Source: Acidimicrobiia bacterium UBA5794
Lineage (GTDB): Bacteria; Actinomycetota; Acidimicrobiia; Spongiisociales; UBA5794
Direction: 5' to 3'
DNA length: 64,000 nucleotides
NCBI GenBank assembly: GCA_002418265.1
Contig: DIDS01000009.1
Span: forward strand, 58,764 to 122,763
Both the position numbers and the translations under genes were made by a program. The first letter of the stretch is position 1, and each line of letters starts with the position of its first letter. Shown piece after piece: positions 4,691-61,017 of the stretch. The notes beneath the pieces were generated by a model. That model worked only from the letters and a program-made list of their open reading frames with translations, was not told the origin of the DNA and made no database searches.

Positions 4691-5290
4691 GTGGCCACAA
4701 AGCGAAGCCCCAAGAAGATCACAGGATCACTGATCGCCGGAGCACTCCTTGTGCCGCTGACCGCCGTCGCCGCTGCGGCGCTGGTCGGGTCCATCACCAA
4801 CGCACAGGGTGCCGAGGCAGCGTCCCCGACACCGGTCACCATGACTGTCGAACGGCCAGCCACGACACCATCAGCAACACCGGAATCGGACACGGAAGCC
4901 ACCATCGCCGCCTGCACATCGGGCGTCGAGACACTCCTTGCTGCTGAACGCGACGGGACAATCGATCCACTCCAGACTGCCGCACTCGATGCTCTGCGCC
5001 AGATCTGTGAGCAAGAAGGAATGGCAATCGACGGTCCCCCGCTTCCCGAGCCCGTGGTCAAGGTCGTGACCGTGAACCAGGCCGCGCCGGCCGGTGGGCA
5101 GGGCGAGAATCTGGCATGTTCCGACGACGACGATGCCTATGACGACGACGATGCATACGACGACGACGATGCATACGACGACGAGTGCGATGACGTCGAT
5201 GATCACCATGACGACGACCATGACCATGGTGATCACCATGACGATGATCACCATGATGACGGCGGCCACGATGACGAGGACGACGACTGA
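4691..5290 (+). CDS. secreted protein with acidic His/Asp-rich C-terminal tail (putative metal-binding)
   Basis: GTG at 4691 is preceded by aaaggag. Has a signal peptide (KKITGSLIAGALLVPLTAVAAAALVG) and four Cys. The tail reads DDDDAYDDDDAYDDDDAYDDECDDVDDHHDDDHDHGDHHDDDHHDDGGHDDEDDD. The ORF track places the start at 4640. Confidence 0.55.
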   Translation: MATKRSPKKITGSLIAGALLVPLTAVAAAALVGSITNAQGAEAASPTPVTMTVERPATTPSATPESDTEATIAACTSGVETLLAAERDGTIDPLQTAALDALRQICEQEGMAIDGPPLPEPVVKVVTVNQAAPAGGQGENLACSDDDDAYDDDDAYDDDDAYDDECDDVDDHHDDDHDHGDHHDDDHHDDGGHDDEDDD

Positions 5291-5640: not shown

Positions 5641-5975
5641 TGGCGAAGCGTATGACAGCGAGCCGAGTCGCCGGCATCACAGCATGGTCAGCAGCTGCCG
5701 TGGCATGGGGCACCGCAGCCGTCGCCTTCGTCACACCGGGATCGTCAACGGGAGCACCGGCGGTGGTGATGGAACCCCCGCCACCGCTTGCTCCGATCCA
5801 GAGCTCCGTTACGGCACCGCAGGCTTCCCTGCCCGCGATGCCAGAGACCGGACTCGTCGTTGTTCGCTATACCCCTGTCGATCGTCCCGAGGCAGAGGTC
5901 GTCGTTGAGCGCCGGATCGTTGCGGCGACGACACCAAGTGCTCGTGCTCCACGCGTGAAGAGCTCCGGATCGTGA
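5637..5975 (+). CDS. small exported hypothetical protein
   Basis: ATGA overlap. Signal-like N-terminus (RVAGITAWSAAAVAWGTAAVAFVTPG). Pro/Ala-rich. Confidence 0.4.
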   Translation: MMAKRMTASRVAGITAWSAAAVAWGTAAVAFVTPGSSTGAPAVVMEPPPPLAPIQSSVTAPQASLPAMPETGLVVVRYTPVDRPEAEVVVERRIVAATTPSARAPRVKSSGS

Positions 5976-6814: not shown

Positions 6815-7416
6815 ACGTCACGTGGATCATCGTTCGAGGATCGGGGATCGCTGCCTTCGTGTTGCTGAGTGCGTCGATGGTCTGGGGATTGTGGATCTCG
6901 ACGAAGACCTTTGGTCGGGCAGTGAACGCAAAAGGACTCCAGTGGCTCCATGAGTCCCTCGGTCTTGCGGCAGTCGCCGCCACCGTCATTCACATGGTGT
7001 CGCTGTCCATGGACGAATTCATCGATTTTGGCTGGTGGGACATCATGATCCCCGGTGTCGCAACGTGGAAGCCGTTGGCGGTGTCCCTCGGTGTTGTCTC
7101 GTTCTGGTCAATACTCCTTGTCTCAGCAAGCTTTTATGCGAAGCGGTGGATCAGCCAGAGCGCATGGAGATCGATTCACTATCTGTCATTCGGGGCGTTC
7201 CTCGCCGCCCTGGCGCACGGGGTGATGGCGGGCACAGACTCGGGAACACCATGGATGACAGCCCTGTATGTGGGAGCGGGAGTGGCCGTCGCCGCCCTCA
7301 CTGCCATCCGTCTGGTGGCATCGTCGCGAAGTCAGGCGTCAGAAGTCACACGACCGACGACCGATGACCGACGAGCGATGACCGATGACCGAAAGCAGAA
7401 CTCGGAAGTCGGGTAG
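6811..7416 (+). CDS. ferric-reductase-like transmembrane heme b protein (YedZ/MsrQ-like FRD domain)
   Basis: About 200 aa with 6 TM segments. Two bis-His pairs with 12-13-residue spacing (HESLGLAAVAATVIH and HYLSFGAFLAALAH) are typical of the FRD family. The last 28 aa are encoded by heptamer repeats. Confidence 0.65.
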   Translation: MNVTWIIVRGSGIAAFVLLSASMVWGLWISTKTFGRAVNAKGLQWLHESLGLAAVAATVIHMVSLSMDEFIDFGWWDIMIPGVATWKPLAVSLGVVSFWSILLVSASFYAKRWISQSAWRSIHYLSFGAFLAALAHGVMAGTDSGTPWMTALYVGAGVAVAALTAIRLVASSRSQASEVTRPTTDDRRAMTDDRKQNSEVG

Positions 7417-9469: not shown

Positions 9470-9481
9470 GCGAGCCTAGGT

Positions 9482-9537
9482 CGGAAGTCAGAAGTCAGAA
9501 GTCAGATGACCGATGACCGATGACCGAAGTCAAGAGT
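9482..9537. repeat. heptamer microsatellite locus B
   Basis: cggaagt cagaagt cagaagt cagatga ccgatga ccgatga ccgaagt, between two minus-strand genes. Confidence 0.85.
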
Positions 9538-9559
9538 TCAGCTGTTGACCTCCACGAAG

Positions 9560-10642: not shown

Positions 10643-12391
10643 ATGCACCAGATTTCGCTTGAAGCCATCGACAAGGCATATCCCGAGACCGTTGTCCTCG
10701 AAGGCGCTTCACTCTCGATTTTGGCTGGTCAAAGAATTGGGCTGATCGGCCAGAACGGGTCTGGCAAGTCAACGCTCCTTGGGATCATCGGTGGATCTGT
10801 GGAACCAGATGGGGGCGAAATCGTCCGAGCATCTGGCCTGCGGGTCGCATCCCTGGCCCAGGATCCGACCTTTCCGACCGGGTCCACCGTCGAAGATGCG
10901 GTGTCCTTCAGCCGCGAAGCCATCTCGCTCGCGGACAGGCTTGGCCTCAAGGAGCCAACGAAGCTCGTCGCCGAGTTGAGCGGCGGTCAACGCAAGCGTC
11001 TCGCCCTCGCCGTCGCCCTCGCCACCGACTGTGATCTGCTCATTCTTGATGAGCCGACCAACCATCTCGATGTTGACACGATCGATTGGCTTGAGGACTA
11101 CATCGAGGGACTCACATCGACACTGCTCCTCATTACCCACGACCGATATCTGCTGGACCGAGTTGTTGACACCATCGTTGAGGTGTACGACCACAAGCTC
11201 TATCCACACCGTGGCACGTACGGGCAGTATCTCGAGGCGCGAGCGGCAAGGGAAGCCATCGAGAATGCGAATACGAAGCGGCTCAAACAGCGAATCAAGA
11301 CCGAGCTTGCTTGGCTCAGAAAGAGCCCAAAAGCACGAACGTCGAAATCTCGCCAACGAACCACACGGGCGACCGAGATTGTGGACGCTGGCCTGCCACG
11401 ACAGCGCCCGGAACTGGTCATGACGTTCCCCCCTCGACGAATCGGCTCAAAGGTCGTCAACCTCCACAACGTGGGCAAGACATACGGTGACCATGTTGTG
11501 CTGCAGGGAATCACCCATCTACTCCCTCCCGACGCACGGATCGGCATCGTCGGGCCGAATGGGGCAGGCAAGACCACATTGCTTGCCCTCATGGCGCAGA
11601 GGATTGAGCCGGATACCGGAAAGGTCGTGGTGGGTTCAACAATCGTGCCAGGTTGGTACGGACAGGACCCAACGCCGATTCCTCCCGAGACGAGGCTGAT
11701 CGATGCAGTCCGGGATCACGCCGATGAGGTTCAGATCACGGACCGCAAGACAGCGACGGCAGCGAAGCTCCTTGAAATGTTCCAATTCACACACGAGCAG
11801 CAGCAGTCAACCGTTGGCGATCTTTCCGGCGGAGAGCGAAGACGGCTCGAACTTCTGTTCGTGTTGATGGGGACACCGAATCTCCTGCTCCTCGACGAAC
11901 CGACCAACGATCTGGATCTCGATACGCTGCACGCCCTTGAGGATTACCTCGATGGATGGCAAGGAGCCATGGTCGTGGCAAGTCACGACCGCTACTTCCT
12001 TGACCGTGTCTGCCGCGACATCTTCTCGATCCAGCCAGACGGCAGCGTCCAGCACCATCCCGGCGGCTGGTCGGCATACTGGACCGATCGGCAGAATCTC
12101 AACGATGCGCCGACCGATCGAACGACCGCGACAAAAACCCGACCGAAGGCGCCGCGAACCAAGCTGACGTTCAACGATCAAAGGGAGTTGAAGCAGCTGA
12201 CCGCACAGATCCCACGACTCGAGGCCGAGCGTTCAAGGCTTGAACACGATCTCGCCGGGGCAGGAACCGACATCGACGAGGTCAGCCGACTCGGCGCCGA
12301 GCTCGCCACCACCATCACCACCCTCGACGCCGCAGAAACCCGCTGGCTCGAGTTGACCGAACTCGCAGAGAAACTTTCCGATGACCGATGA
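10643..12391 (+). CDS. ABC-F family ATPase (Uup/EttA-like, two ABC domains plus C-terminal coiled coil)
   Basis: Two Walker A motifs (GQNGSGKST, GPNGAGKTT) and two signature motifs (LSGGQRKRL, LSGGERRRL). No TM domain. The stop codon lies inside a GACCGAT repeat. Confidence 0.85.
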   Translation: MHQISLEAIDKAYPETVVLEGASLSILAGQRIGLIGQNGSGKSTLLGIIGGSVEPDGGEIVRASGLRVASLAQDPTFPTGSTVEDAVSFSREAISLADRLGLKEPTKLVAELSGGQRKRLALAVALATDCDLLILDEPTNHLDVDTIDWLEDYIEGLTSTLLLITHDRYLLDRVVDTIVEVYDHKLYPHRGTYGQYLEARAAREAIENANTKRLKQRIKTELAWLRKSPKARTSKSRQRTTRATEIVDAGLPRQRPELVMTFPPRRIGSKVVNLHNVGKTYGDHVVLQGITHLLPPDARIGIVGPNGAGKTTLLALMAQRIEPDTGKVVVGSTIVPGWYGQDPTPIPPETRLIDAVRDHADEVQITDRKTATAAKLLEMFQFTHEQQQSTVGDLSGGERRRLELLFVLMGTPNLLLLDEPTNDLDLDTLHALEDYLDGWQGAMVVASHDRYFLDRVCRDIFSIQPDGSVQHHPGGWSAYWTDRQNLNDAPTDRTTATKTRPKAPRTKLTFNDQRELKQLTAQIPRLEAERSRLEHDLAGAGTDIDEVSRLGAELATTITTLDAAETRWLELTELAEKLSDDR

Positions 12392-12445
12392 CCGATCTCA
12401 GAAGTCAGAAGTCCGGAATCCAATGACCGGCACCTCTCGGTCATC
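12380..12445. repeat. heptamer microsatellite locus C plus inverted GACCG hairpin
   Basis: gatgaccgatgaccgatctcagaagtcagaagtccgg, followed by aatgaccggcacctctcggtcatcgg (inverted tgaccg/cggtca). Confidence 0.8.
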
Positions 12446-12508
12446 GGTCTTCGGTCGTCATGGCCTTGGCGGCGGTAGGGTTTCGTTCACACGGGAAGGC
12501 AGGTACAC

Positions 12509-14497
12509 ATGGATGATCCGATAGTTCCGATCGTGTCGCCGGACGACACAGTATTCGATCCCGAGGACATGGACCCTGACGCATCGCCAGCAACCGACTT
12601 TTGGCGATGGGCAAACGGTGGTTGGTTGGACCGCAACCCTGTACCTCCGGAGTATCCAATGTGGGGTGCATTCCTCGAACTCCATACCCGCAACGAAGAG
12701 ATCGTTCACACACTGCTCAAACAGGCAGCGGACGCCGGCGCCGCCGTCGGCACGGTCGATCAGAAGATCGGTGATTTCTATGCGTCTGGTATGGACACCG
12801 ATGCGATCGAAGCGACCGGGATCGAACCGATCCAACCATGGCTCGACCTCATCGAGGGAATCGACACGGTTGATGACCTCCGAACCGCGTTCACCGAGCT
12901 CAACAGGATCGGTGCATCCGTCGGCTGGAACTGGCACGTCGAACCGGATCGCTCCGACTCAACCCAGAACCTTCTCTACATCGCACAGGGCGGACTCGGC
13001 CTGCCAGACCGCGACTACTACTTTCGTGACGATGACCGCTCACAAGCGCTCGCCTCGGCGTATCGCGACCATGCGACAGCGATGTTCGAACTCCTCGGCT
13101 GGCCCTCTGAGGAAGCCAGCACTGCAGCCGAAACCATTTGGAAGATCGAATCGCGACTTGCTGAGGCTTCCAACACTGCTGTCCAACAGCGTGATGTCCA
13201 AGACACGACCAACAAACTGACCACAGCCGAGGTCGCCGACCTCACGCCGACTGTGATGCTCAACGATTGGCTGGAGGCAATCGGTGCAGGTCAGGAAGCG
13301 GCCGTCAACATCGACAATCTCCGGTTCTTCTCCGAGCTTGACACGATGTTCAACGAGGTCCCCATCGACGACTGGAAAACCTACTGCACATGGCACCTCC
13401 TGGTGTCGACAGCGAGTGGCCTTCCAAGCCGATTCGAGGACGAGGCCTTCAGCTTCTGGGGTGTCAAGGTTTCCGGTCAGAAAGAGCAGAAGCCGCGCTG
13501 GAAGCGTGTCGTATCAGCGGCCGGGGGCAGCATCGGTCATTTGGTGGCTCAACTCTATGTACGCGAGCACTTTCCACCGTCTGCCAAAGAACGGGTTGAG
13601 GATCTCGTTGAAAGGATCCTGGTTGAGATGCGCAAGAGCATCGAGACCGTCGATTGGATGGGTCCTGACACCAAGAAGCAGGCACTTGAGAAGCTTGAAG
13701 GATTCGGCTACAAGATCGGGTATCCGGACAAGTGGCGTGACTATTCATCCCTTTCCATCTCAAGGGACGCCTGGCTTGCCAACCGCCTGGCGGCCCGAGT
13801 GTTCGAGTTCGAGCGCAACATCAACACGCTTGGCAAACCCATCGATGAACACGAATGGTTGATGCCTCCCCACATCGTCAACGCCTATTACTGGCCCGAG
13901 CGAAACGAAATCGTGTTTCCCGCTGGCATCCTCCAACCACCCTTCTTCGTTGCCGAGGCTGACGATGCCGTGAATCTCGGTGGGATCGGTGCAGTGATCG
14001 GCCACGAGATCACACACGGCTTCGACGACAAGGGGTCGTTGTTCGATGCCACCGGCCATCTTCGCAATTGGTGGACCGACGATGACCGGGCCGAGTTCGA
14101 GGCGCGGGCCAAGGTCATCGCGGAGCAGTTCAGTGCCTATGAGATCGAGGACGGCTTGAACATCAATGGCGATCTCACCCTCGGTGAGAACATTGCCGAT
14201 CTCGCTGGTCTCACCCTCGCGTTCGGCGCACTGCGCCAGATCCTCGACGAGAACGGCGCCGATCTCATCGGCGGGCTGACACCCGAGCAGCGGTTCTTCC
14301 TGTCCTATGCACGCATCTGGCGCATGAACGCAACACCGGAATACACACGCCTCATCGTCAACTCGGATCCCCATTCGCCAGCCGAGTTCCGGGTCCGAGG
14401 ACCGCTGTCGAACATGACCGAGTTTGCCGATGCTTTCAACCTCCCCGATGACTCCCCCACGATGCGACCGGTGGATGAACGGGCCAAGGTTTGGTGA
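12509..14497 (+). CDS. pepO: M13 family zinc metalloendopeptidase (PepO/neprilysin-like)
   Basis: HEITHGFD zinc motif, ENIADLAGL motif, 662 aa. Confidence 0.9.
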   Translation: MDDPIVPIVSPDDTVFDPEDMDPDASPATDFWRWANGGWLDRNPVPPEYPMWGAFLELHTRNEEIVHTLLKQAADAGAAVGTVDQKIGDFYASGMDTDAIEATGIEPIQPWLDLIEGIDTVDDLRTAFTELNRIGASVGWNWHVEPDRSDSTQNLLYIAQGGLGLPDRDYYFRDDDRSQALASAYRDHATAMFELLGWPSEEASTAAETIWKIESRLAEASNTAVQQRDVQDTTNKLTTAEVADLTPTVMLNDWLEAIGAGQEAAVNIDNLRFFSELDTMFNEVPIDDWKTYCTWHLLVSTASGLPSRFEDEAFSFWGVKVSGQKEQKPRWKRVVSAAGGSIGHLVAQLYVREHFPPSAKERVEDLVERILVEMRKSIETVDWMGPDTKKQALEKLEGFGYKIGYPDKWRDYSSLSISRDAWLANRLAARVFEFERNINTLGKPIDEHEWLMPPHIVNAYYWPERNEIVFPAGILQPPFFVAEADDAVNLGGIGAVIGHEITHGFDDKGSLFDATGHLRNWWTDDDRAEFEARAKVIAEQFSAYEIEDGLNINGDLTLGENIADLAGLTLAFGALRQILDENGADLIGGLTPEQRFFLSYARIWRMNATPEYTRLIVNSDPHSPAEFRVRGPLSNMTEFADAFNLPDDSPTMRPVDERAKVW

Positions 14498-14533
14498 GTC
14501 TGACGTCAGACGTCAGAAAGAGAGCTGAAAGCT
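14498..14533. repeat. palindromic CAGACGT repeat plus GCTGAAAGCT motif (locus D)
   Basis: gtctgacgtcagacgtcagaaagagagctgaaagctg. GTCTGACGTCAGAC is a perfect 14-bp palindrome. Lies between convergent pepO and the nfu-like gene. Confidence 0.8.
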
Positions 14534-14551
14534 GTGAGCCAAAGTGCGTCG

Positions 14552-15241: not shown

Positions 15242-16498
15242 ATGGAAACCGTCGTCATCGTTGCCAGCTGCGAAAGCTACCGAACGGGTGATTTCATTGC
15301 TGCCGCCCGTGCACAGCGTCTTGCCGTTGTGGTTGCGACCGATGCGGACTCGCCCTTTGACACCCACGTCGACCAAGTCGTCGAGATAGATCTCGACGAT
15401 GTGGCTGGCGGCGCGGCAGCGATCGCCACGGCTGTACCCGATGCTGTTGCCGTCGTTGCGATCGACGATCAGGGTGTCAGGGTCGCCGGTGCGGCAAACG
15501 CAGCACTCGGTCTCAAGAGCAACCCACCATCGAGTATCGACGCCACCCGTGACAAACTCGTCATGCGGGGTCTGCTCGCAGCGGCTGGAGTCTCGCAGCC
15601 GGGTTTCACATCCGTGCAACCGGGAGATCTGCGTCGATGTCTTGAAGAGGTGGGCTTACCGGCAGTCGTCAAGCCGACGACTCTTGCCGCATCACGCGGG
15701 GTGATCCGTATTGACGACATCGCGCGGGCCGATGAGATCGAGCGCCGCGTCCGAAACATCGCGTACCAGGGCGGGATTCCTCCGACCGAGTCCCTCATCG
15801 TTGAGCAGTACATCGCGGGTGACGAGATGGTTGTCGAGGGGATGATCGTCGATGGCTCACTTGAGGTGCTCGCTTTGATCGACAAACCGGTGCCACTGGT
15901 CGGACCGTTCTTCGAAGAGACGATGTTCGTTTCACCCTCACGCCAATCCGACGCGGTCCAGGAGGCGGTCATCCAGGTGGTCGCGGAAGCCGTTGAGGCG
16001 ATCGGCATCGTCACCGGACCGATCCACGCCGAGATCAGAATCGATGAAACTGGAACACCGTTTGTCATTGAGGTTGCCGCCCGATCAATCGGCGGCCTCT
16101 GCGGGCGGGCGCTGACGTTTGGGCTCCTCGCTGAACCACTTGAAAGTGTTGTGATCCGCAGCGCAACGGGGCGAACAGCAATCGAGCAACCCACCAGGCC
16201 CGCAACCGGTGTGTTGATGCTGCCCATCCCGGGGGCGGGGCGCCTTACCGACATCGAGGGAGTCGACGCGGCCCTTGCTATCGAGGGCATCGACGCCGTC
16301 GACATCACGATTCCGATCGGGCGCTCGGTCACACCGCTCCCCGAGGGTGACCGCTATCTCGGGTTTGTGTTTGCAACCGGGTTGACACCCGATGACGTTC
16401 AGCACGCCCTCGCTCGCGCCGCGGCGGTCATCGAGCCCGTGATCGACGGAGAGTACGTCGAAAGCGACGGACAGTCAGAGGCAGGAAAGTTGGGCTAG
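15242..16498 (+). CDS. ATP-grasp domain protein (carboxylate-amine ligase-like, function unknown)
   Basis: Pre-ATP-grasp plus ATP-grasp fold blocks (LPAVVKPTTLAASRGV, EQYIAGDEMVVEGMI, IHAEIRIDETGTPFVIEVAARS). Start at METVVIVAS. Confidence 0.65.
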   Translation: METVVIVASCESYRTGDFIAAARAQRLAVVVATDADSPFDTHVDQVVEIDLDDVAGGAAAIATAVPDAVAVVAIDDQGVRVAGAANAALGLKSNPPSSIDATRDKLVMRGLLAAAGVSQPGFTSVQPGDLRRCLEEVGLPAVVKPTTLAASRGVIRIDDIARADEIERRVRNIAYQGGIPPTESLIVEQYIAGDEMVVEGMIVDGSLEVLALIDKPVPLVGPFFEETMFVSPSRQSDAVQEAVIQVVAEAVEAIGIVTGPIHAEIRIDETGTPFVIEVAARSIGGLCGRALTFGLLAEPLESVVIRSATGRTAIEQPTRPATGVLMLPIPGAGRLTDIEGVDAALAIEGIDAVDITIPIGRSVTPLPEGDRYLGFVFATGLTPDDVQHALARAAAVIEPVIDGEYVESDGQSEAGKLG

Positions 16499-16506
16499 AA
16501 CCGGGG

Positions 16507-17040
16507 TCAGAAGTCAGAAGTCAGACGTCAGAGTCGGTTCAAACCCGTCCCCCCGGTCTTGCGGGGGGACGCGGAGCAACGCATGCACAGCAGGCGCTGC
16601 GTAGCAGGGGGGCGTCCCAGCCTGTCGCAATACCAGAGCCCCCCTGCCCCTCGCTACGCTCGGCGCGTCCCCCCGCAAGCGGGAGGACGGGAGAAGTCAG
16701 AGTCGGTTCTAAACCCGTCCCCCCGGTCTTGCGGGGGGACGCGGAGCAACGCATGCACAGCAGGCGCTGCGTAGCAGGGGGGCGTCCCAGCCTGTCGCAA
16801 TACCAGAGCCCCCCTGCCCCTCGCTACGCTCGGCGCGTCCCCCCGCAAGCGGGAGGACGGGAGAAGTCAGAGTCGGTTCTAAACCCGTCCCCCCGGTCTT
16901 CCGGGGGGACGCGGAGCAACGCATGCACAGCAGGGGTTGCATAGCAGGGGGCGTCCCAGCCTGTCGCAATACCAGAGCCCCCCTGCCCCTCGCTACGCTG
17001 TACTACCCAAACCGTCCGCCTGAAGGGGGGACGGGGGTTG
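16507..17040. repeat. heptamers plus 3 tandem copies of a 170-bp GC-rich hairpin-rich REP/MITE-like element (locus E)
   Basis: tcagaagtcagaagtcagacgtcagagtc, then units starting at 16528, 16697 and 16867 (period 169-170). Contains hairpins gtccccccggtcttgcggggggac and cgtccccccgcaagcgggaggacg. Copy 3 is diverged and supplies the CFA synthase C-terminus. Confidence 0.9.
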
Positions 17041-18290: not shown

Positions 18291-18418
18291 AAGACCGAGT
18301 ACCGATTACCGATTACCGACTTCCGACTTCCGACTTCCGACTGATGATCGCCGAAGTCCAACATCCCGCGTTGCCTCTTCTTTCCGGTCGGTCATCGGTC
18401 GTCGGACTTCGGACCTAG
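18291..18418. repeat. heptamer microsatellite locus F (ACCGATT/GACTTCC variants, contains an inverted copy)
   Basis: accgattaccgattaccgacttccgacttccgacttccgact...ttccggtcggtcatcggtcgtcggacttcggacc. ggtcatcggtc is the reverse complement of gaccgatgacc. Confidence 0.75.
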
Positions 18419-18427
18419 GCTCAATGC

Positions 18428-19510: not shown

Positions 19511-19544
19511 TTCCCACGCAACTCACACGCCGTCAGAGATGCGG

Positions 19545-19576
19545 GCTGAAAGCAGAAGGCTGAAAGCTGAAAGCTC
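19545..19576. repeat. GCTGAAAGC motif cluster (locus G)
   Basis: gctgaaagcagaaggctgaaagctgaaagctc. The same motif recurs at 14523, 33551 and 59781. Confidence 0.7.
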
Positions 19577-23506: not shown

Positions 23507-24456
23507 ACGACACGCAACTGATCCTCACGATGTTCGCTGCGGTCGGGCTTGGAACACCGCTGATCTTTGCCACAGTCGGAGAGATCATCACCGAACGAGC
23601 GGGGATTCTGAATCTCGGCGTACAAGGGATGATGCTCATCGGTGCTGTTACGGGATTCTGGGGAACATTCCAAACCGGGAATCTCGTATTCGGGGTCGTC
23701 ATTGCAATGGTGTGCGGAGCAGCCCTTTCGGCCGTACACGCTTTCACGTCGATCACGTTGCGCGTCAACCAGATCGTCTCAGGACTCGCCCTTGCCCTGT
23801 TCGGATCCGGCCTCGCAAGCTTCCTCGGAAGGGCAGGGTCGGAGCCGTTGGTCGGCCACCCGTCACGTGCGCAGTTCGAGCCGATCTTCACCGGCGGGAT
23901 TGCAGACATCCCGATTGTTGGCCCACTCCTGTTCGGACATGATCCTCTGGTGTATCTGTCGTGGCTCGTCGCAGGGGCTGCGAGCTACTACTTGTTCAGA
24001 ACCAGGATGGGGCTTTCACTTCGTGCTGTTGGGGAGGATCCAGCATCCGCTGAGGCCGCCGGTGTCCATGTGTCGAAAGTGAGGTATGTGCACGTGCTGA
24101 TCGGTGGTGCTCTCGCAGGACTCGGTGGCGCCTACTTCTCGCTGGCCCTGACACCGACGTGGCAGGACGATCCGATCGGTGCTGCCGGATGGATCGCGAT
24201 CGCACTTGTCATCCTTGCGAGCTGGCGACCCTGGCGAGCAGTATTCGCCGCGTACCTTTTCGGGGCCGCTGAACGGGTCCAGTTCACACTCCAGACACTC
24301 GGCGAACCGTGGAGTGACATCCCTTCCACGCTCTTGGCGATGCTGCCGTTCATTCTTGCCATCATCGCGATGATCGTGCTCACGAGTGGTAAACGGGCTC
24401 GTTTGTTGGGAGCTCCCTCGGCGTTGGGAGTCCCCTACTTCAGGGAACAACGCTGA
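23503..24456 (+). CDS. ABC transporter permease (BMP-associated)
   Basis: 317 aa, multi-TM. ATGA overlap. Confidence 0.85.
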   Translation: MNDTQLILTMFAAVGLGTPLIFATVGEIITERAGILNLGVQGMMLIGAVTGFWGTFQTGNLVFGVVIAMVCGAALSAVHAFTSITLRVNQIVSGLALALFGSGLASFLGRAGSEPLVGHPSRAQFEPIFTGGIADIPIVGPLLFGHDPLVYLSWLVAGAASYYLFRTRMGLSLRAVGEDPASAEAAGVHVSKVRYVHVLIGGALAGLGGAYFSLALTPTWQDDPIGAAGWIAIALVILASWRPWRAVFAAYLFGAAERVQFTLQTLGEPWSDIPSTLLAMLPFILAIIAMIVLTSGKRARLLGAPSALGVPYFREQR

Positions 24457-24470
24457 ACGACGACCGGATT

Positions 24471-24617
24471 CAGAAGTCAGAAGTCAGAAGTCAGAAGTCA
24501 GAAGTCAGAAGTCAGAAGTCAGAAGTCAGAAGTCAGAAGTCAGAAGTCAGAAGTCAGAAGTCAGAAGTCAGACGTCAGAGGACCGATGACCGATGACCGA
24601 TGACCGATGACCGAATT
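24471..24617. repeat. microsatellite locus H: (CAGAAGT)x14 perfect, then CAGACGT, CAGAGGA, then (CCGATGA)x4
   Basis: Read directly: 14 consecutive perfect CAGAAGT copies at 24471-24568, followed by gaccgatgaccgatgaccgatgaccgatgaccg. Confidence 0.95.
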
Positions 24618-24654
24618 TAGGAGTCATGGAATCCGGCATACCTGGGTTTCCAAG

Positions 24655-29483: not shown

Positions 29484-29526
29484 GTCTGGAGCTTACTGCC
29501 TGTGCACACGAGCGTTTCGCCGGGCA

Positions 29527-29623
29527 GTCAGACGTCAGACGTCAAGTGACCGATGACCGATGACCGATGACCGATGACCCAAGACCGAAGACCGAAGTCA
29601 AGGGTTCAGTCGCTGGACTCCAA
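29527..29623. repeat. heptamer microsatellite locus I
   Basis: cagacgtcagacgtcaagt, then (gaccgat)x5, then gacccaagaccgaagaccgaagtcaag. Confidence 0.85.
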
Positions 29624-33339: not shown

Positions 33340-33565
33340 GTCACCCACCCCTTTCAGACGGAGCCCCTGCCCGCCCGGGGGCTTCGACGCGTGACAGATG
33401 CCGACGACCGACAACCGATAACCGACCTCAGAAGTCGGAGTCTGAATTCATTGGTCACCAGTCGGGCGACGGGCGGCCCCAACATAGCCGACAAGCTCAA
33501 CATCGTCCCACCCCCTTGCGGGAGGACGGGAAGAAGCGAGGTCAGACGCTGAGAGCTGAAAGCTC
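33340..33565. repeat. degenerate REP/MITE-like element plus heptamers (locus J)
   Basis: Contains gacgaccgacaaccgataaccgacctcagaagtc, cgtcccacccccttgcgggaggacgggaag and gctgagagctgaaagctc. Its 5' part is the reverse complement of the ttcgacgtcggaagcccccctgcccc core. Confidence 0.7.
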
Positions 33566-34882: not shown

Positions 34883-34934
34883 GATCGGATATCGGATTAC
34901 GAGAGCCAGACGTCAGACGTCAGACGTCCGATGT
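34883..34934. repeat. heptamer locus K (atcggat variants, then (CAGACGT)x3, then ccgatgt)
   Basis: gatcggatatcggattacgagagccagacgtcagacgtcagacgtccgatgtc. Contains the stop codon of the gene at 34913. Confidence 0.8.
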
Positions 34935-39772: not shown

Positions 39773-39843
39773 TCCTTCCCAGTACGCATCGACGTCCGAT
39801 TGCTGACTCCGGTGATCGGTCATCGGATGACGGTCATCGGCTA

Positions 39844-40431
39844 CTACTGGTCGACGCGGGTCCGTTTGAACTCGTTCACGTTCGTCCATGACAGCATGCC
39901 GAGGACTCGATCGAGATCAGCGCGCTGATGACGCTCCATGAACCGCACGAACACCGCCTCGCCGTCAGCAATGAAGGTCGGGACTCCGAACACGGCGTGG
40001 GTCTCGACAAGGTCGGTGTGTTCGGCGGCAAGTGTCTTGGCTGGAATGCCGGACGACACCTGTCCGGCGATCTCGCCGGCGTCAAGGCCTACAGACTCCG
40101 CAATCTGCGACAAGACGGAAGCGTCTCCGATCTCGAGCAGGTCATCGTGCTTGGCGTTGTAGACCGCGACATGGAATGCTCGGAATGAATCGGGAAAGCC
40201 ATCGCGAACGGCAAGGGACCACAACAGAGCTCGTACGCCTCGCGGAAGATCTCCAGCAGGATCGTGTTCCCACACCGGCTGGTCCCCGACTTCCAGGTGG
40301 TTCTGAGAAAGCGAGAACGGGCGAAACGTCACGTCGTAGTCGGCCCCATCGTCAAGAGCCTCAACGACTGCCTCGTTTCCGATCCGAGAAAAGGGGCAGA
40401 GGTAGTCGTATGTGATTGCAAACCTGGTCAT
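39844..40431 (-). CDS. DsbA-like thioredoxin-fold protein (HCCA isomerase/DSBA family)
   Basis: N-terminal FAITYDYLCPFSRIG and C-terminal FGVPTFIADGEAVF blocks. Confidence 0.65.
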   Translation of the reverse strand: MTRFAITYDYLCPFSRIGNEAVVEALDDGADYDVTFRPFSLSQNHLEVGDQPVWEHDPAGDLPRGVRALLWSLAVRDGFPDSFRAFHVAVYNAKHDDLLEIGDASVLSQIAESVGLDAGEIAGQVSSGIPAKTLAAEHTDLVETHAVFGVPTFIADGEAVFVRFMERHQRADLDRVLGMLSWTNVNEFKRTRVDQ

Positions 40432-41202: not shown

Positions 41203-41243
41203 GTGGCTTCTCCTGAGGTCCAGGAACCGCACACTACAGATAT

Positions 41244-41345
41244 CAGACGTCAGAAGTCAGAAGTCAGACGGTCCCCCTGCGGAGTAGGGCCTGCTGCGCA
41301 GGCATTGCTCCGCGTCCCCCCGGAAACCGGGGAGACGGGATAACC
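41244..41345. repeat. heptamers plus single REP-like unit (locus L)
   Basis: cagacgtcagaagtcagaagtcagacg, then gtccccctgcggagtagggcctgctgcgcaggcattgctccgcgtccccccggaaaccggggagacggga. This is the reverse-complement orientation of the locus E hairpin region. Confidence 0.85.
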
Positions 41346-49637: not shown

Positions 49638-51956
49638 ATGAGTTTCTATCTCGGTGGACCCATAGACGACGCTGGCGAACGTGTCAATGGGAACACCTTC
49701 CAATACGACCCATCAGATTTGACGACGCACGGCGTGATCGTGGGAATGACGGGTTCGGGAAAAACGGGACTCGGCATCATCTTTCTCGAAGAGGCGCTAC
49801 GAGCCGGAATCCCAACCCTCGTCATCGACCCGAAGGGGGACATGACGAACCTTCTCCTCACGTTCCCGGATCTGTCTCCGACCGACTTCGAACCGTGGGT
49901 TGATGCCGCCGCTGCTGAAAAGGACGGTCGAACCTCACATGAGGAAGCCACCGCGGAAGCAGCGAAGTGGAAAACGGGTCTTGGCTGGTGGGACCTCAAT
50001 GCCGACGCCATCGCCAGCTTGCGCGAGCGAGCCGGAATGACGATCTACACGCCGGGATCGAATGCCGCAAATCCATTGAACATCGTGGGCAATCTCAACC
50101 CTCCGGTTCTTTCTTGGGACACGGATTCCGAGACCATCCGTGATGAGATCGAAGGCTTCACATCTGGACTTCTCGGTTTGATCGGCATAGACGCAGATCC
50201 GATTTCGTCACGTGAACACATACTGATCGCCAACCTTGTGGAACGAGCCTGGCGTGAAGGAACCACCCTCGACATCGGAACGATCATCACCCAGATCGCC
50301 AACCCGCCGATGCGCAAGCTTGGGGTGTTTGAGGTCGACCAGTTCTTTCCCGAGAAGGACCGCATGAAGCTGGCCATGCAACTCAATGGTCTTCTTGCGT
50401 CGCCATCGTTCGCCGCTTGGATGGCTGGTAACGACCTCGATATCGAGTCGCTCCTGTGGAAGAACGGAAAGCCGCAAGCGGCAATCATGTATCTCGCCCA
50501 CCTATCGGACATGGAACGCCAGTTCGTCGTCACCATGATCTACACAAGGCTCATCACGTGGATGCGATCACAGCCAGGAAGCAGCGACCTGCGAGTACTC
50601 GCCTACATGGATGAGGTCTTCGGATTCGTTCCTCCCACCGCGCAGCCGCCAGCCAAGAAGCCGATCCTCACATTGCTCAAGCAGGCGAGGGCCTTTGGTG
50701 TGGGCATGCTCTTGTCAACCCAGAATCCTGTCGATCTCGACTACAAGGCAATGTCGAATGCAGGAACTTGGTGTATCGGCCGACTCCAAACTGAGCGTGA
50801 CAAGGCACGGATCATCGAAGCTCTCACAACCTCGTCCGGAGCGATAGACACCGCCGAGATGGACACAACGATTTCCAAGCTTCCCAAACGTGGTTTCGTG
50901 ATCCACAACACAAGGGAAAAGGTGCCGACCACGATCACCACCCGATGGGCGATGTCGTATCTCAGAGGACCGATGACACGGGAAGAGGTGTCGCGCTTCA
51001 AGGACACTGCAACGGTGAAGGCGGCGAAGCCTCCATCACCGGCCGCCGACCCGACCCCGGATCCCACGAGCATTTCGGGACCTACGAGGACCCCCGAGGT
51101 CGCAGAAGGAGTTGCGTCCGTTGCGATCCATCCGGCCGCCCCATGGCGTGCGATCGTGGGCGACTCCGACGCCGGAACCGCGTACCGCGCGGCCTTCGCT
51201 GTCGATGTTGAGATGCGGTTCGACGAATCAAGGATCGGTGTCGACCACGTAGAGAGCTGGGAAGCCATCGTGATTGACCCAACGATCGATGATCTGTCAG
51301 ACCTCATCGAGATCGACTATGACACGCGAGACTTCATCGAGCCAGACAGCGCCATTCCCTTTCTGCCGACCGATGTGCCGATATCTCAACCGGGATTCTT
51401 CAACGACCTCAAGGCACGCGTCAAGAAGCATCTGGACACAAACGAGACGCTTGAGCTCTCACGAAATGCCGACCTCAAACTGGTTTCTCGTCCTGGTGAA
51501 CCCGAGAGCGACTTTCTTGTTCGCTGCCAGGACGCCGCCAACAATGCAGCCGATGCCGAAAAGGCCAAAGCTATTTCCAAGTACGAGACTCGCCTGAGGC
51601 GTGTTCGGCGCGCCTATGACGATGCTGTTGCTGACGCAAGCCTGGCTGAGCAGGCTGCTGCCGACGAGCAGCGCTCCGCCCTTCTCGGCTTCGGTCTCGA
51701 TCTCCTTACGGGCCGCAAGGCGCGACTTCCAGGCTCGCGATCTCGAACGACGCAGGATCGTGCCAGGCGCGCACAGTCCAAGATCGACTCCAAACGTGCA
51801 GAGTACGAAGACCTCACCGCTGAAATGGAGGACGCGTGTGTCGCAATCGACGACAAGTGGGATACCAAGGTCTCCAACATCGAACCGGTGACAATCGGCC
51901 TTGAGGCCGACGACATCCGCGTCACCGATGTCAAAGTGGTCTGGATACGGACCTAA
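49638..51956 (+). CDS. HerA/FtsK-superfamily P-loop ATPase (DUF853/YjgR-like) with roughly 290-aa C-terminal coiled-coil extension
   Basis: Walker A VIVGMTGSGKTGLG, Walker B LAYMDEVFGF, and the conserved LLSTQNPVDLDYKAMSNAGTWCIGRLQTERDK block. 772 aa. Confidence 0.7.
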   Translation: MSFYLGGPIDDAGERVNGNTFQYDPSDLTTHGVIVGMTGSGKTGLGIIFLEEALRAGIPTLVIDPKGDMTNLLLTFPDLSPTDFEPWVDAAAAEKDGRTSHEEATAEAAKWKTGLGWWDLNADAIASLRERAGMTIYTPGSNAANPLNIVGNLNPPVLSWDTDSETIRDEIEGFTSGLLGLIGIDADPISSREHILIANLVERAWREGTTLDIGTIITQIANPPMRKLGVFEVDQFFPEKDRMKLAMQLNGLLASPSFAAWMAGNDLDIESLLWKNGKPQAAIMYLAHLSDMERQFVVTMIYTRLITWMRSQPGSSDLRVLAYMDEVFGFVPPTAQPPAKKPILTLLKQARAFGVGMLLSTQNPVDLDYKAMSNAGTWCIGRLQTERDKARIIEALTTSSGAIDTAEMDTTISKLPKRGFVIHNTREKVPTTITTRWAMSYLRGPMTREEVSRFKDTATVKAAKPPSPAADPTPDPTSISGPTRTPEVAEGVASVAIHPAAPWRAIVGDSDAGTAYRAAFAVDVEMRFDESRIGVDHVESWEAIVIDPTIDDLSDLIEIDYDTRDFIEPDSAIPFLPTDVPISQPGFFNDLKARVKKHLDTNETLELSRNADLKLVSRPGEPESDFLVRCQDAANNAADAEKAKAISKYETRLRRVRRAYDDAVADASLAEQAAADEQRSALLGFGLDLLTGRKARLPGSRSRTTQDRARRAQSKIDSKRAEYEDLTAEMEDACVAIDDKWDTKVSNIEPVTIGLEADDIRVTDVKVVWIRT

Positions 51957-52229
51957 CGGTCAGACATCAGACATCAGACGGCCCCCCTGCGGAGCAGCGC
52001 CTGCTGCGCAGGCGTTGCTCCGCGTCCCCCCGGTAGCCGGGGGGACGGGAAAAAGTCCAACACCGTCCTCCCGCTTGCGGGGGGACGCGCCGAGCGCAGC
52101 GAGGAGCAGGGGGGCTTCCGACGTCTGACCTCTGGAAGACGGGGCTCGCAGGCTCGCACGCCCCCCTGATTCGACTACGTAGGATTAGTCCCTCCTGAAG
52201 GGGGGACGGGAGATCGGAAGATCTCGAAG
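51957..52229. repeat. heptamers plus composite REP/MITE-like element (locus M)
   Basis: cagacatcagacatcagacg, then a copy related to locus L, then a reverse-complement copy of the 114-bp unit of locus N (tcctcccgcttgcggggggacgcgccgagcgcagcgaggagcaggggggcttccgacgtc; ggaagacggggctcgcaggctcgcacgccc). Confidence 0.9.
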
Positions 52230-53279
52230 CTATATGAGATCCTGTTCGCGGATTCCGAAGCTTGGATGTCGCAGCCGACACAAAGCCAGCTTTTCAAGTT
52301 GTCGAATGCGCTCGCGTGTCAGGTTGAATTCCTCGCCGATCTCTTCAAGGGTGCGCGGTATCCCGTCATAGAACCCGTAGCGAAGGGCAAGGATGCGACC
52401 TTCCCTTGTGGGAAGACGGTCAATCGACTTGCGAAGCGAATTTGCAATGTCCATCTCTTCGGTGACCTTGACGGGGTCAACGGCATCCTCATCTTCGATG
52501 AAATCACCAAGTTGTGCCCCGTCTTCACCGATCGGCTGCTCGAGAGAGACGGTGTCGGCAACGGCAAGGGCAAGTTCAACCTTGGATACCTCAACGCCGG
52601 CCTCTTCCGCGATCTCGTCGGGTTTGGGATCACGTCCAAGCTCAGCCTTGAGCGATGCCTGCGCTGCGCGCACGGCAGCGAGGGTGTCATGGAGATGAAC
52701 CGGAATTCTGACAGTACGCGATTTGTCGGCAATGGCACGGGTGATCGCCTGCCGGATCCACCACGTTGCATATGTCGAGAACTTGAACCCCTTGCGCCAG
52801 TCGAACTTCTCAACCGCCCGGATCAGGCCAAGATTGCCTTCCTGGATCAGGTCAAGGAAATCGATCCCGGAGGTGTTCGCATACCGACGGGCGTTCGCCA
52901 CCACAAGACGCAGGTTTGCGGTCAGAAAGGCATCCTTGGCCTCACTCCCGCGCCGTACCTGGCGCTTCAAGAGAATGTGTTCAGCCTTGGTCTTGTAATC
53001 GCCAGCCTCAAGGCGTTGGATCGCTGCCTGTCCTGCCTCGATCTTCTGGGCATAGTCAACTTCATTCTCGGCCGTGAGAAGCTCGAACTCGCCGATTGAA
53101 GTCAGATACTGAGAAACGAGGTCAGTTGTCAGCCTGCCACGGTCATCGGTCAGCTTGGATCGTTCGCGATCCTTGAGTGATCGAGACAGCGTGTCACGAT
53201 CCATCCGCTCTTTGGCTTCCTCGCGTTCGCGGGCAGCCTTGTCGACGATCGCTTTTCGCGGCTTTGAATCTGTCGTCAT
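52230..53279 (-). CDS. RNA polymerase sigma-70 family factor, group 2 (SigB/HrdB-like)
   Basis: Regions 1.2, 2 ([31 protein letters not shown]), 3 and 4 ([20 protein letters not shown]). Confidence 0.85.
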
Positions 53280-53509
53280 CCAACATCCTCCATGGCGATC
53301 GACGGTTGACGTCTGTGAAACGTTGCCCGGCCGTGTATGCCCTAGTCCACCAACTCAGGATTCCTACCCAATATCACACACGCTGTCCCGTTTGTGAACC
53401 CATTTCTCTCCAACCAGAAGGTAGGAACACCGATGTCGTACCCACAGACCGAAAGCACTCGCTGCTGGCACGGAGCTCCCAAGTTGGCCGCCGAGCGTAT
53501 CCTCACACG

Positions 53510-54145
53510 ATGCCCGACACCTCGACAATTCTGCTCTTTGCACTCGCATCGCTGATACTCGTGGTCATTCCCGGACCCGCAGTCGTCTACATCCTGACCC
53601 GTAGTGTCAGCCAAGGACGAACTGCTGGTCTCGTCTCTGCCGTCGGAGTCAACGTCGGGTCCACCGTTCACGTACTCGCCGCGGTGCTCGGCCTGTCCAT
53701 CATCCTGGCGCGGTCCGCAGTGGCGTTTGCAACGATCAAGTGGGTCGGTGTCATCTATCTCGCGTGGATCGGAATCCGAACCCTCCGGTCAGATGACACG
53801 ATCTTTGAGCAGGTGGCTACGGAACAACAGGAACTGCGAGCCGTCTTCCTCCAAGCAGTCCTCGTGAACATCCTGAACCCGAAGGTAGCAATCTTCTTCC
53901 TCGCATTCCTGCCTCAGTTCGTCGATACAAGTGCCGCGAACCCGGCGCTCCAAACGTTCGTCTTGGGGATGACGCTCATCCTGATCGGTCTCATGTCCGA
54001 TTCGGCGTATGCCATCATCGGAGGATCCGTCGGAGACCTGTTTCGATCCAAGCCGAGAGCCGCGCGCAACACCAGAATCGGTGCCGGCGTGACATATCTC
54101 GCATTGGCTGGTGTCGCCGCGGCAACAGGCACCCGTTCCTCCTAG
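53510..54145 (+). CDS. LysE/RhtB-family amino-acid exporter
   Basis: 211 aa, 6 TM segments, typical LysE N-terminus (LLFALASLILVVIPGPAVVYIL). The track ORF is extended upstream to 53177. Confidence 0.8.
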   Translation: MPDTSTILLFALASLILVVIPGPAVVYILTRSVSQGRTAGLVSAVGVNVGSTVHVLAAVLGLSIILARSAVAFATIKWVGVIYLAWIGIRTLRSDDTIFEQVATEQQELRAVFLQAVLVNILNPKVAIFFLAFLPQFVDTSAANPALQTFVLGMTLILIGLMSDSAYAIIGGSVGDLFRSKPRAARNTRIGAGVTYLALAGVAAATGTRSS

Positions 54146-54192
54146 CGATACGCAGTTTGTCGAGAAAACAACTGCCGCCATACGCTCCCCGG

Positions 54193-54576
54193 ATGGCCAG
54201 ACCGACAACCTTCATCGCCGCGCTCGTCGTGGCCCTCGCCGTTGCCGCATGTGGGGGTGGCACCAGTGAGCCTGCGCCGACGGGACCGCTCGGCCCTGGT
54301 GACATCGAACGTGGACAGGCGGTGTACAAGAGCACCTGCCAATCGTGTCACGGTGGCGACGCGACAGGTATCAGCGGACTCGGGAAGGCGCTCAAAGGTA
54401 GCGAATTCGTTGCGAGCCTCACCGAGGTGGAGCTTGCCGAGTTCGTCAAGGCTGGAAGACCAACCAGTGATCCGGCCAACACGACGGGACTTGACATGCC
54501 AGCCAAGGGCGGCAACCCCAGTTTGAACGACCAGCAGCTCCGCGATGTCGCTGCCTATCTCAGATCCCTCAACTGA
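54193..54576 (+). CDS. class I c-type cytochrome lipoprotein
   Basis: Lipobox ALAVAACGGG, haem motif CQSCHG, and a distal Met region. Start at MARPTTF. Confidence 0.7.
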   Translation: MARPTTFIAALVVALAVAACGGGTSEPAPTGPLGPGDIERGQAVYKSTCQSCHGGDATGISGLGKALKGSEFVASLTEVELAEFVKAGRPTSDPANTTGLDMPAKGGNPSLNDQQLRDVAAYLRSLN

Positions 54577-54638
54577 TCAAGAAGGGCAGAAAGCCCGAAA
54601 GCCATACGGTTACGGGTGTTCGCCGTATCCTCAACGCC

Positions 54639-55676: not shown

Positions 55677-55714
55677 TCCCAGCGTCCGTCGGCACCAATC
55701 GAAAGCGAAAGCCC

Positions 55715-57960: not shown

Positions 57961-58029
57961 TGTGCGTGATACCAGCGCACTTTCAACAAAGGGACATACA
58001 ATGCGGGTGACCCAACGAGGATCGGTGCT

Positions 58030-58932: not shown

Positions 58933-58972
58933 CGAAGCATTCGCTTTCCCGAACCGGTTTACAATCCAAGCC

Positions 58973-59482: not shown

Positions 59483-59810
59483 ATCTGACGTCAGACAACC
59501 CTGATCTGTCCCCCCGCAAGCGGGAGGACGGGAAGAGGGCGTGCGAGCCTGCGAGCCCCGTCTTCCAGCGGGGGACAGATTCGACGTCGGAAGCCCCCCT
59601 GCCCCTCGCTGCGCTCCTCGCGTCCCCCCGCAAGCGGGAGGACGGGAAGAGGGCGTGCGAGCCTGCGAGCCCCGTCTTCCAGCGGGGGACAGATTCGACG
59701 TCGGAAGCCCCCCTGCCCCTCGCTGCGCTCGGCGCGTCCCCCCGCAAGCGGGGGGACGGGAAGAAAAGGCGACGTCAGAAGCTGAAAGCCGGAAGCTGAA
59801 AGCTCCTAAG
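59483..59810. repeat. heptamer plus 2.3 tandem copies of a 114-bp REP/MITE-like unit plus GCTGAAAGC motifs (locus N)
   Basis: Units start at 59508, 59622 and 59736 (period 114). The core ttcgacgtcggaagcccccctgcccctcgctgcgctc-gcgtccccccgcaagcgggaggacgggaag is shared with locus E. The element ends with gacgtcagaagctgaaagccggaagctgaaagctc. Confidence 0.9.
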
Positions 59811-60138: not shown

Positions 60139-60146
60139 CGCCCTTT

Positions 60147-60974: not shown

Positions 60975-61017
60975 GTTTGGAACGCTACTGGTCTGTCGCG
61001 TAACTGATGCCAGACGC

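Follow-up and report, generated by a model that had tools for sequence, protein, structure and literature searches.

A probable REP/BIME-like family of dispersed GC-rich palindromic modules in a clade of Acidimicrobiia

Repetitive extragenic palindromic (REP) sequences have been defined in detail, as have the head-to-head and tail-to-tail dimers they form and the sites they occupy, which are downstream of genes and in the gaps of convergent pairs (PMC3733652). Their assembly into bacterial interspersed mosaic elements (BIMEs), REP doublets forming hairpins (REPINs) and REPtrons is likewise described (PMC6006769), and stem-loop repeats are enriched at the 3' ends of genes (PMC1590033). Here we describe GC-rich, hairpin-rich repeats at five loci of a 64-kb stretch of DNA (the window) from Acidimicrobiia bacterium UBA5794 (GCA_002418265.1, contig DIDS01000009.1, positions 58,764 to 122,763). 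These repeats probably constitute a lineage-specific family of non-coding, non-autonomous palindromic elements, organized in the manner of the REP/BIME (REPIN) elements of Proteobacteria. In the literature we found no description of this family, nor of REPs with their associated tyrosine transposases (RAYTs) in Acidimicrobiia or Actinobacteria.

The five loci lie at 16507-17040 (locus E), 33340-33565, 41244-41345, 51957-52229 (locus M) and 59483-59810 (locus N). A preliminary description had grouped them as a single mosaic, multi-copy, hairpin-rich family of non-coding intergenic repeats present in both orientations, in a high-GC actinobacterium, and this grouping is borne out. GC-rich modules are common to all five loci, the shared blocks that it quoted are found in place on reading the sequence, and the host, a member of the Acidimicrobiia, has a GC content of 59%. 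A repeat search identifies 52063-52125 (63 nt, 95-97%) and 52129-52163 (35 nt, 97%) in locus M as reverse complements of the locus N unit, as had been proposed, and 51981-52044 and 41273-41332 as reverse complements of a 60-64-nt block of locus E (80-86%). Tandem Repeats Finder reports a tandem array with a period of 114 at 59508-59764 (2.3 copies, 97% matches), in agreement with the unit given earlier for locus N, and one with a period of 170 at 16523-16999 (2.8 copies, 97% matches). The tandem organization claimed for locus E thus stands, but not its three full units, and the right end of this locus (16979-17034) is a distinct third type of module.

The pattern GTCCYCC-N3-12-GGRGGAC occurs 10 times in the 64-kb window versus 0.05 expected by chance, and the octamer GGGGGGAC occurs 18 times versus 3.8 expected, with all 18 inside the five loci. 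A covariance model built from 24 modules (R1) recovers 10 full modules in the window and none beyond the five loci. The window is part of the 2.73-Mb contig JAOSJN010000001.1 of the Acidimicrobiia metagenome-assembled genome (MAG) GCA_027494075.1, and is base-for-base identical to the NCBI assembly and to independent Joint Genome Institute (JGI) contigs from sample 3300029304. Because two independent assemblies give the same sequence the arrays are free of assembly artefact, and since the window shows no strain polymorphism against either assembly there is no copy-number variation to exploit. Explanations as assembly artefact, attC sites or coding repeats were considered and rejected.

Alignment of the copies in the window and in related genomes shows that the basic unit is a module of 47-67 nt, with a head (CCCCCCTGC), a variable middle that forms a second hairpin when intact, and a tail hairpin of the form GTCCCCCC-loop-GGGRGGAC. 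The tail hairpin is 20-24 nt long with a 9-11-bp GC stem; its foot, (G)CGTCC, is paired with GGACG, the stem is all G-C except for one T-A pair, and the loops are 3-6 nt. It is followed on its 3' side by GG(G)AAG or GGTGTTGGACT, and the tails (GGGAAG or GGTGTTGG) are purine-rich. There are three module types. Type A has a short middle, GCAAGC as its loop and a stem with a conserved C.A mismatch; the middle of type B is a 16-bp hairpin; and type C has a TGAA loop. Conserved linkers connect the modules head-to-head or tail-to-tail, with tandem amplification following, and each pair is consequently able to fold into one long hairpin or cruciform. The linkers are common to loci M and N and to a sixth locus found by adding 10 kb to each end of the window (L130:16263-16410, 4 kb outside the window and between convergent genes), and comparable clusters are present in the related MAG CAZULI01. 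The parts of the five loci, including adjoining tracts of heptamers, are as follows, with bit scores from model R1.

16505-16544, plus strand: GTCAGAA-type heptamer tract that separates the first module from the ATP-grasp stop codon (16496-16498); every 170-bp unit repeats the final 20 nt of the tract (GTCAGAGTCGGTTC-AAACCC)
16523-16999, no strand: 2.8 tandem copies of a 170-bp compound unit, the first two matching at 100% and the third differing by five substitutions and one indel
16545-16611, minus strand: B-type module, copy 1, 51.8-52 bits, with head CCCCCCTGC, a decayed 16-bp middle hairpin and tail hairpin GTCCCCCCGCAAGACCGGGGGGAC; other copies at 16715-16781 and 16885-16951
16640-16690, plus strand: A-type module, copy 1 (CCCCCTGCCCCTCGCTACGCTCGGCGCGTCCCCCCGCAAGCGGGAGGACGG), 70.7 bits, facing the B module head-to-head over a spacer of 24 nt; copy 2 at 16810-16860
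16979-17034, plus strand: C-type module with head, middle and tail hairpin CCGTCCGCC-TGAA-GGGGGGACGG, common to the congeneric genome L131
33504-33533, plus strand: degenerate A-type tail hairpin (CGTCCCACCCCCTTGCGGGAGGACGGGAAG), 16.8 bits, E 0.21, with GCTGAAA heptamers after it (33539-33565); the remainder of 33340-33565 is heptamers and decayed sequence
41241-41270, plus strand: GTCAGAA/GTCAGAC heptamer tract immediately adjoining the B-module head
41275-41338, plus strand: single B-type module between two minus-strand genes, 42.8 bits, with middle hairpin GCGGAGTAGGGCCTGC-TGC-GCAGGCATTGCTCCGC and tail GTCCCCCCGG-AAA-CCGGGGAGAC
51957-51980, plus strand: GTCAGAC/ATCAGAC heptamer tract immediately 3' of the HerA-like stop codon
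51983-52048, plus strand: B-type module with intact 16-bp middle hairpin (GCGGAGCAGCGCCTGC-TGC-GCAGGCGTTGCTCCGC) and tail GTCCCCCCGG-TAG-CCGGGGGGAC, 50.2 bits
52063-52113, minus strand: A-type module, 72 bits, tail-to-tail with the B module via the linker GGAAAAAGTCCAACA
52117-52160, plus strand: linker, matching in reverse complement the spacer between locus N modules and containing a short GTCTGAC heptamer tract
52161-52209, plus strand: C-type module with head CCCCCCTGA, middle TTCGACTACGTAGGATTA and tail hairpin GTCCCTCC-TGAA-GGGGGGAC (52188-52207), ending 20 nt from the sigma-factor stop codon
59508-59764, no strand: 2.3 tandem copies of a 114-bp unit made up of spacer and A module, 67-70.8 bits
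59508-59529, 59595-59645 and 59709-59759, plus strand: solo tail hairpin and two A modules of locus N
59765-59805, plus strand: purine-rich tail, then GTCAGAA and GCTGAAA heptamers, reaching the stop codon (59806-59808) of a convergent minus-strand gene

The unit of locus E is therefore a reversed B module, the 24-nt spacer and an A module, head-to-head, and locus M is a B module and a reversed A module, tail-to-tail, followed by the linker and a C module. Locus N consists of linker plus A module, 2.3 times over. The locus at 41244 is one lone B module, and that at 33340 retains a decayed tail hairpin and nothing else of a module.

All five loci lie between called genes, save for the overlap with one 3' end described below, and with the sixth locus there are at least 14 modules in ~83 kb. 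Convergent intergenic regions hold four of the six loci but make up 9 of the 47 intergenic regions overall (binomial p ~0.014). The elements are downstream of genes, and none of the 10 divergent regions carries one.

Comparison with relatives, whose orthologous sites are empty, shows that 3' intergenic regions of this lineage gained modules. The gap between the convergent HerA-like and sigma-factor genes is 273 bp in the window versus 16, 17, 39 and 55 bp in four syntenic relatives (HerA amino-acid identity 79, 76, 75 and 70%), with no hairpin there, and the site of locus N is 323 bp here versus 36-56 bp in relatives. Modules are absent from the syntenic 7-22 kb of relatives at 70-79% identity. 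At closer range, the congeneric genome L131 has 84% nucleotide identity in genes, and its site corresponding to locus E is 131 bp long with two copies of a different compound unit and the same terminal TGAA hairpin; clusters turn over quickly between congeneric species. The right half of locus M and the sixth locus have a ~150-nt composite in common (~91% identity) with unrelated flanks, from which it follows that copying from site to site also takes in units exceeding a single module. The 170-bp array probably grew by local duplication after its modules were in place, because 20 nt from the end of the adjoining heptamer tract are included in each unit.

One module has become part of a gene's 3' end. 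The minus-strand cyclopropane-fatty-acid-synthase-like (CMAS) gene runs through the C-type hairpin of locus E, and the module overlaps its last ~14 codons and its stop codon (16993-16995). The product in the window ends ...ERPQPPSPLQADGLGSTA, with an added tail of 12-14 residues (QPPSPLQADGLGSTA) encoded by the hairpin (region 16993-17040). Ten CMAS homologues, one at 89% identity, end ...ERPxx*, and the tail is found only in the window and in L131, where the TGAA hairpin also lies inside the CMAS 3' end.

Several lines of evidence place copies beyond the window, as the preliminary description had anticipated, in the sixth locus and in related genomes. Of the short-read assemblies of this organism, five independent ones all stop 79 nt beyond the sigma-factor stop codon, within locus M, and in two more the end falls at the first hairpin of locus E or elsewhere in that locus. 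Such contigs break exactly at the elements, as de Bruijn assemblies do at multi-copy repeats, which argues for many genomic copies. In a scan of one genome per species the A-type tail was found in 18 stretches, most of them from the Acidimicrobiia MAGs CAVQOG01 and CAZULI01 and often at contig ends, with some from QQUL01, and the 51-nt A module is present at 85-96% identity in CAVQOG01, CAZULI01, QQUL01 and contig RCMY01. Related genomes also carry tandem compound units of 146 bp (3.5 copies) and 263 bp (2.1 copies). A relative whose HerA is 76% identical has a sister family (L119, 9440-9960), with CCGTCCTCC-NTCAAG-GGAGGACCGAAGAA (GTCCTCC-NTCAAG-GGAGGAC) in 2.5 copies of 65 bp followed by ACTGAAAG-type heptamers. 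A called ORF of 170 residues across the sister repeat is probably spurious.

Three contigs (L004, L010 and L122) of a MAG labelled Armatimonadetes (GCA_008501565.1, QQUL01) share these modules and heptamers. In HerA and CMAS fragments its identity to this Acidimicrobiia genome is 90-91%, so the contigs are probably mis-binned or the MAG mislabelled. A metagenome scan with the hairpin pattern returned 88 loci, nearly all of them unrelated lone terminator-like hairpins, with only one (L062) in the family. Seven contigs from other environments (L033, L038, L086, L097, L107, L088 and L051) have a single element consisting of CCCCCCTGC, a short hairpin and GTCCCCCC-loop-GGGGGGACGG; the first five represent one locus from different samples, and in L033 and L038 this layout is at a single-copy locus. 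The design of a head and two hairpins may therefore be wider than this Acidimicrobiia clade. A scan of viral contigs gave only one lone hairpin without a head, and a plasmid scan gave no match.

The hairpins of the preliminary description are upheld by folding, with predicted energies of the loci 6.5-8.6 standard deviations below those of dinucleotide shuffles and both strands alike; in locus M the two heads are predicted to pair and close a large cruciform. Over 24 distinct modules the tail hairpin is 92% paired, with 7 of 11 pairs invariant and an identical C.A mismatch inherited in 14 of the 24. Scattered compensatory variants occur in a wider set (ATCCCCCC...GGGGGGAT at three loci, and GTCCTCC...GGAGGAC in the sister family), in which the innermost pair is C-G, T-A or G-C. 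The B-type middle hairpin is intact in locus M but retains 11 of 16 pairs in locus E, and this decay without compensation is a pattern seen in neutral or selfish repeats. Strand asymmetry (G.U versus C.A), a potential clue to which strand is transcribed, favours the reverse strand for the A-type tail and the forward strand for the B-type middle hairpin at 41275-41338, so the two disagree.

The heptamers GTCAGAA, GACCGAT, GCTGAAA and their variants are present in ~16 of the 47 intergenic regions, about a third, usually as (GTCAGAA)n followed by (GACCGAT)n. The largest array is (TCAGAAG)x15.7 followed by (GACCGAT)x4.9 (24470-24614). Arrays in the window other than the tracts listed above are at these positions.

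7321-7403, 9470-9552, 12363-12459, 14496-14551, 18295-18419, 19536-19576: heptamer arrays
24452-24625, 29503-29599, 34903-34933, 39791-39845: heptamer arrays, continued

It had been suggested that heptamers and GC element form one composite element. In favour of this, all five GC loci carry heptamers (hypergeometric p ~0.003), and the ~150-nt composite common to locus M and the sixth locus has a heptamer tract within it. However, 11 of the 16 heptamer-bearing regions lack GC modules, CAZULI01 has modules without heptamers, and the window and L131 show freely differing arrays. For these reasons the heptamer arrays are a separate, hypervariable class of repeat that co-occurs with the modules and is sometimes included in composites. 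The two classes seem interchangeable at a 3' end. L131 has a solo GC hairpin (CCCCGTCCCCCCTTCAGGGGGGACGGG; reverse strand, 5768-5795) 4 nt after the ABC-F stop codon, and the same side of this gene in the window (12377-12459) has inverted heptamer arrays, (GACCGAT)n...(ATCGGTC)n, able to form a long hairpin. The arrays recall the intergenic heptamer repeats that are reported in cyanobacteria and Beggiatoaceae (PMC4679880). The window also contains tandem repeats of period 18/30 at 5123-5290, rich in GAC, GAT and CAT codons and within a called ORF of 199 residues, which are a low-complexity Asp/His-rich protein segment.

We propose that the modules were dispersed by a trans-acting activity encoded elsewhere in the genome, possibly an enzyme of the HUH/RAYT type or another one acting on single-stranded DNA, or that copies recombined with one another. 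The 170- and 114-bp arrays may have grown locally by unequal recombination or slippage between near-identical heads, a route suggested by the inclusion of flanking heptamer sequence in the repeated units. Insertions at 3' intergenic positions would be the least harmful. When transcribed, the modules would form stable stem-loops in 3' UTRs, mostly of convergent gene pairs, where by analogy with Escherichia coli REPs they would most likely block 3'-5' exonucleases, stop convergent read-through, or both (PMC3733652, PMC1590033, PMC6006769).

Several observations weigh against the interpretation of the family as dispersed REP/BIME-like repeats. At none of the six loci could a target-site duplication or a sharp element end be defined. 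As the preliminary description had noted for the window, Pfam annotation of the called genes (2509-63279) shows no transposase, and across ~83 kb there is no transposase, integrase or cas domain among the called genes. The RAYT/IS200-type transposase that it proposed to look for elsewhere did not appear either: a motif regular expression and phmmer searches with E. coli RAYT, IS608 TnpA and a COG1943-type consensus against six-frame ORFs of ~0.9 Mb, a set that compares with a genome of 2.73 Mb and includes small CAZULI01 contigs bounded by modules, gave no HUH-Y1 homologue at E <0.1. Covariation in the tail hairpin is not significant among 24 sequences, because its sequence hardly varies, and with 7 of 11 pairs invariant and the C.A mismatch shared by 14 of 24 structural selection is not separable from common descent. 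The whole-genome copy number of ~190 is an extrapolation only. Neither do the modules need to be terminators themselves, given that a canonical intrinsic terminator (L130 16468-16525; a ~17-bp stem, ATATCGGGCCTCACACC...GGTGTGAGGCCCGATA, and a T-rich tail) lies just downstream of those at the sixth locus, which would be inside a 3' UTR rather than the terminator. No U-tract follows any module hairpin, and a terminator scan of 51000-61000 reports no module hairpin. The modules were accordingly rejected as canonical intrinsic terminators on account of their lack of a U-tract, their purine-rich tails and the separate terminator at the sixth locus.

Other explanations fit parts of these data. A true REP/REPIN-RAYT system, in which a single-copy, module-flanked RAYT (HUH-Y1) elsewhere in the 2.73-Mb genome copies the modules as single-stranded hairpins, would account for the inverted doublets and mosaic clusters, which have BIME/REPIN organization (PMC6006769). 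The identical C.A mismatch kept in 26 copies from related MAGs resembles a protein recognition feature, and modules are better conserved between genomes (85-96%) than genes are between congeners (84%). We nevertheless regard it as possible but doubtful, with a base-paired CGTCC at the foot instead of GT[AG]G, no Y1 homologue in the ~0.9 Mb searched, including the module-bounded CAZULI01 contigs where a REPtron would be expected, and no paper found on REPINs with RAYTs in Actinobacteria. A RAYT-independent, Actinomycetota-specific system, in which the three-part module (head CCCCCCTGC, middle and mismatched tail hairpin) is copied by some other enzyme and the GTCAGAA/GACCGAT/GCTGAAA arrays are its preferred targets or by-products, is a speculative proposal and an unlikely one. 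We give about as little credence to the idea that the modules are non-mobile 3'-end structures (bidirectional terminators or insulators) of local origin, alike through constraint and gene conversion. The location of four of six loci between convergent genes and none between divergent ones, the solo L131 hairpin so close to a stop codon, the equally good folding of both strands and the scarcity of U-tract terminators in the scanned region (4 versus 8.1 in shuffles) are what such structures would lead one to expect. Yet 51-nt modules, including their unpaired parts, show 85-100% identity from one unrelated locus or genome to another, linkers and the 150-nt composite are shared, middle hairpins decay without compensation, and the same convergent pairs in relatives have gaps of 16-55 bp with no hairpin.

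The elements are non-coding, short and multi-copy with no transposase nearby, and their head-to-head pairs give inverted termini, properties of a MITE (miniature inverted-repeat transposable element), that is, a deletion derivative of an insertion sequence moved by the DDE transposase of its parent through terminal inverted repeats and leaving target-site duplications. This is very improbable: no terminal inverted repeats delimit an element, the six loci lack defined ends and duplications, single modules and solo hairpins stand alone, modules recombine in many arrangements with no one fixed element, and plasmids gave no match. The MITE status and the target-site duplications raised by the preliminary description accordingly fall away. 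Very stable folding, a Shine-Dalgarno-like GGGAGGA in the tail and C-rich arms that recall 6C RNA (a weak match of 25.7 bits) could point to structured small-RNA genes or cis-regulatory RNA motifs, but this too has very little to commend it. The 6C family needs 47 bits, other matches are generic miRNA-like hairpins, and in Rfam searches in gathering and E-value modes the elements reach 19-28 bits in their best matches, where the thresholds are 47-268. Copies are in both orientations relative to neighbouring genes, there is no covariation, and no promoter-like sites lie in or beside loci M and N, the two sites found in the 51000-61000 scan being elsewhere. The sole Rfam hit to pass in the window is a tRNA-Sec gene (anticodon TCA, 63482-63574, minus strand, 69.6 bits) in a 1.9-kb stretch without called genes. 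A degenerate or orphan clustered regularly interspaced short palindromic repeat (CRISPR) array was suggested by the 28-nt tail hairpin GTCCCCCCGCAAGCGGGAGGACGGGAAG, which we take to resemble type I-E repeats (CCCCGC...GCGGGG), and by its fixed spacing of 114 or 170 bp. Its likelihood is negligible and it was rejected, since the supposed spacers are mutually identical and repeated elsewhere, including in reverse orientation, and the called genes of ~83 kb include no cas genes.

The interpretation as dispersed REP/BIME-like repeats has several implications. REP-type repeats are well studied in Proteobacteria, and this is a clean case in uncultured Acidimicrobiia that are common in wastewater and freshwater metagenomes, one in which orthologous sites can be compared with and without modules, clusters change rapidly from one congener to another and a coding 3' end has captured a module. 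The family explains the fragmentation of short-read MAGs in this lineage, where contigs end exactly at modules, and is a possible marker for strain typing. If the RAYT-independent proposal were true, modules and heptamers would constitute a fast-evolving layer of 3'-UTR structure in the lineage, and if the complete genome has no RAYT the family would join the CGTC repeats as evidence of REP-like spread without one.

The family closely parallels the REP, BIME and REPIN elements of Enterobacteria and Pseudomonas. As in those systems the repeats are short, GC-rich imperfect palindromes (in the range of ~21-65 nt, the commonest tail variant having one C.A mismatch), extragenic and probably multi-copy, with subtypes in alternating orientation, conserved linkers and inverted doublets in mosaic clusters (head-to-head at locus E, tail-to-tail at locus M). 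Doublets are amplified in tandem as in BIME-2, and both groups prefer positions downstream of genes and between convergent genes, with occasional capture into coding 3' ends. The differences are the lack of a GT[AG]G tetranucleotide at the foot, with neither GTAG nor GTGG adjacent to the hairpin, a three-part module of 47-67 nt in place of a single 20-40-nt palindrome, and an Acidimicrobiia host in which no RAYT was found in the ~0.9 Mb searched. The earlier REP-type assignment therefore holds for organization but not for strict membership, for want of the GT[AG]G foot and of a RAYT in the sequence searched. The family is probably one of REP/BIME-like dispersed GC palindromic modules in a small Acidimicrobiia clade, undescribed in this lineage although the kind of element is already known.

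The CGTC-tagged REP superfamily, which is not reported from Actinobacteria (Di Nocera et al. 2013, PMC3733652), resembles the present family in a tail hairpin starting with CGTC, head-to-head dimers, location downstream of genes and the lack of a known dedicated transposase. Here CGTC is paired with GACG whereas theirs is an unpaired tag; the stems are 9-11 bp of near-pure G-C rather than 8-9 bp with A-T at the first two positions; and loops of 3-6 nt with a GG(G)AAG tail compare with 4-5 nt and CCA. Membership in this superfamily was rejected because CGTC is paired and the rules for stem, loop and tail differ.

BOX elements of Streptococcus pneumoniae consist of distinct boxes in fixed order, with the inner box in variable tandem number, in a low-GC host; they are intergenic, strongly folding and non-autonomous, and their mobilizing enzyme is not known. 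The modules share this modular, folding, intergenic and non-autonomous character but differ in sequence, host GC content and module sizes. The mycobacterial interspersed repetitive units (MIRUs) and variable-number tandem repeats (VNTRs) of Mycobacterium are intergenic tandem units of 40-170 bp whose copy number varies between relatives, and MIRUs lack GC palindromes, occur only as direct repeats and are found inside operons, where they overlap stop and start codons. The common ground is that of actinobacterial intergenic tandem units, with GC palindromes here rather than direct repeats only. Finally, the 'I-shaped' intrinsic terminators of Actinobacteria are likewise GC-rich stem-loops a few to tens of nucleotides after the stop codon with no U-run. 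Those terminators form no sequence families, whereas in the modules described here the unpaired parts and linkers are also conserved and repeated.

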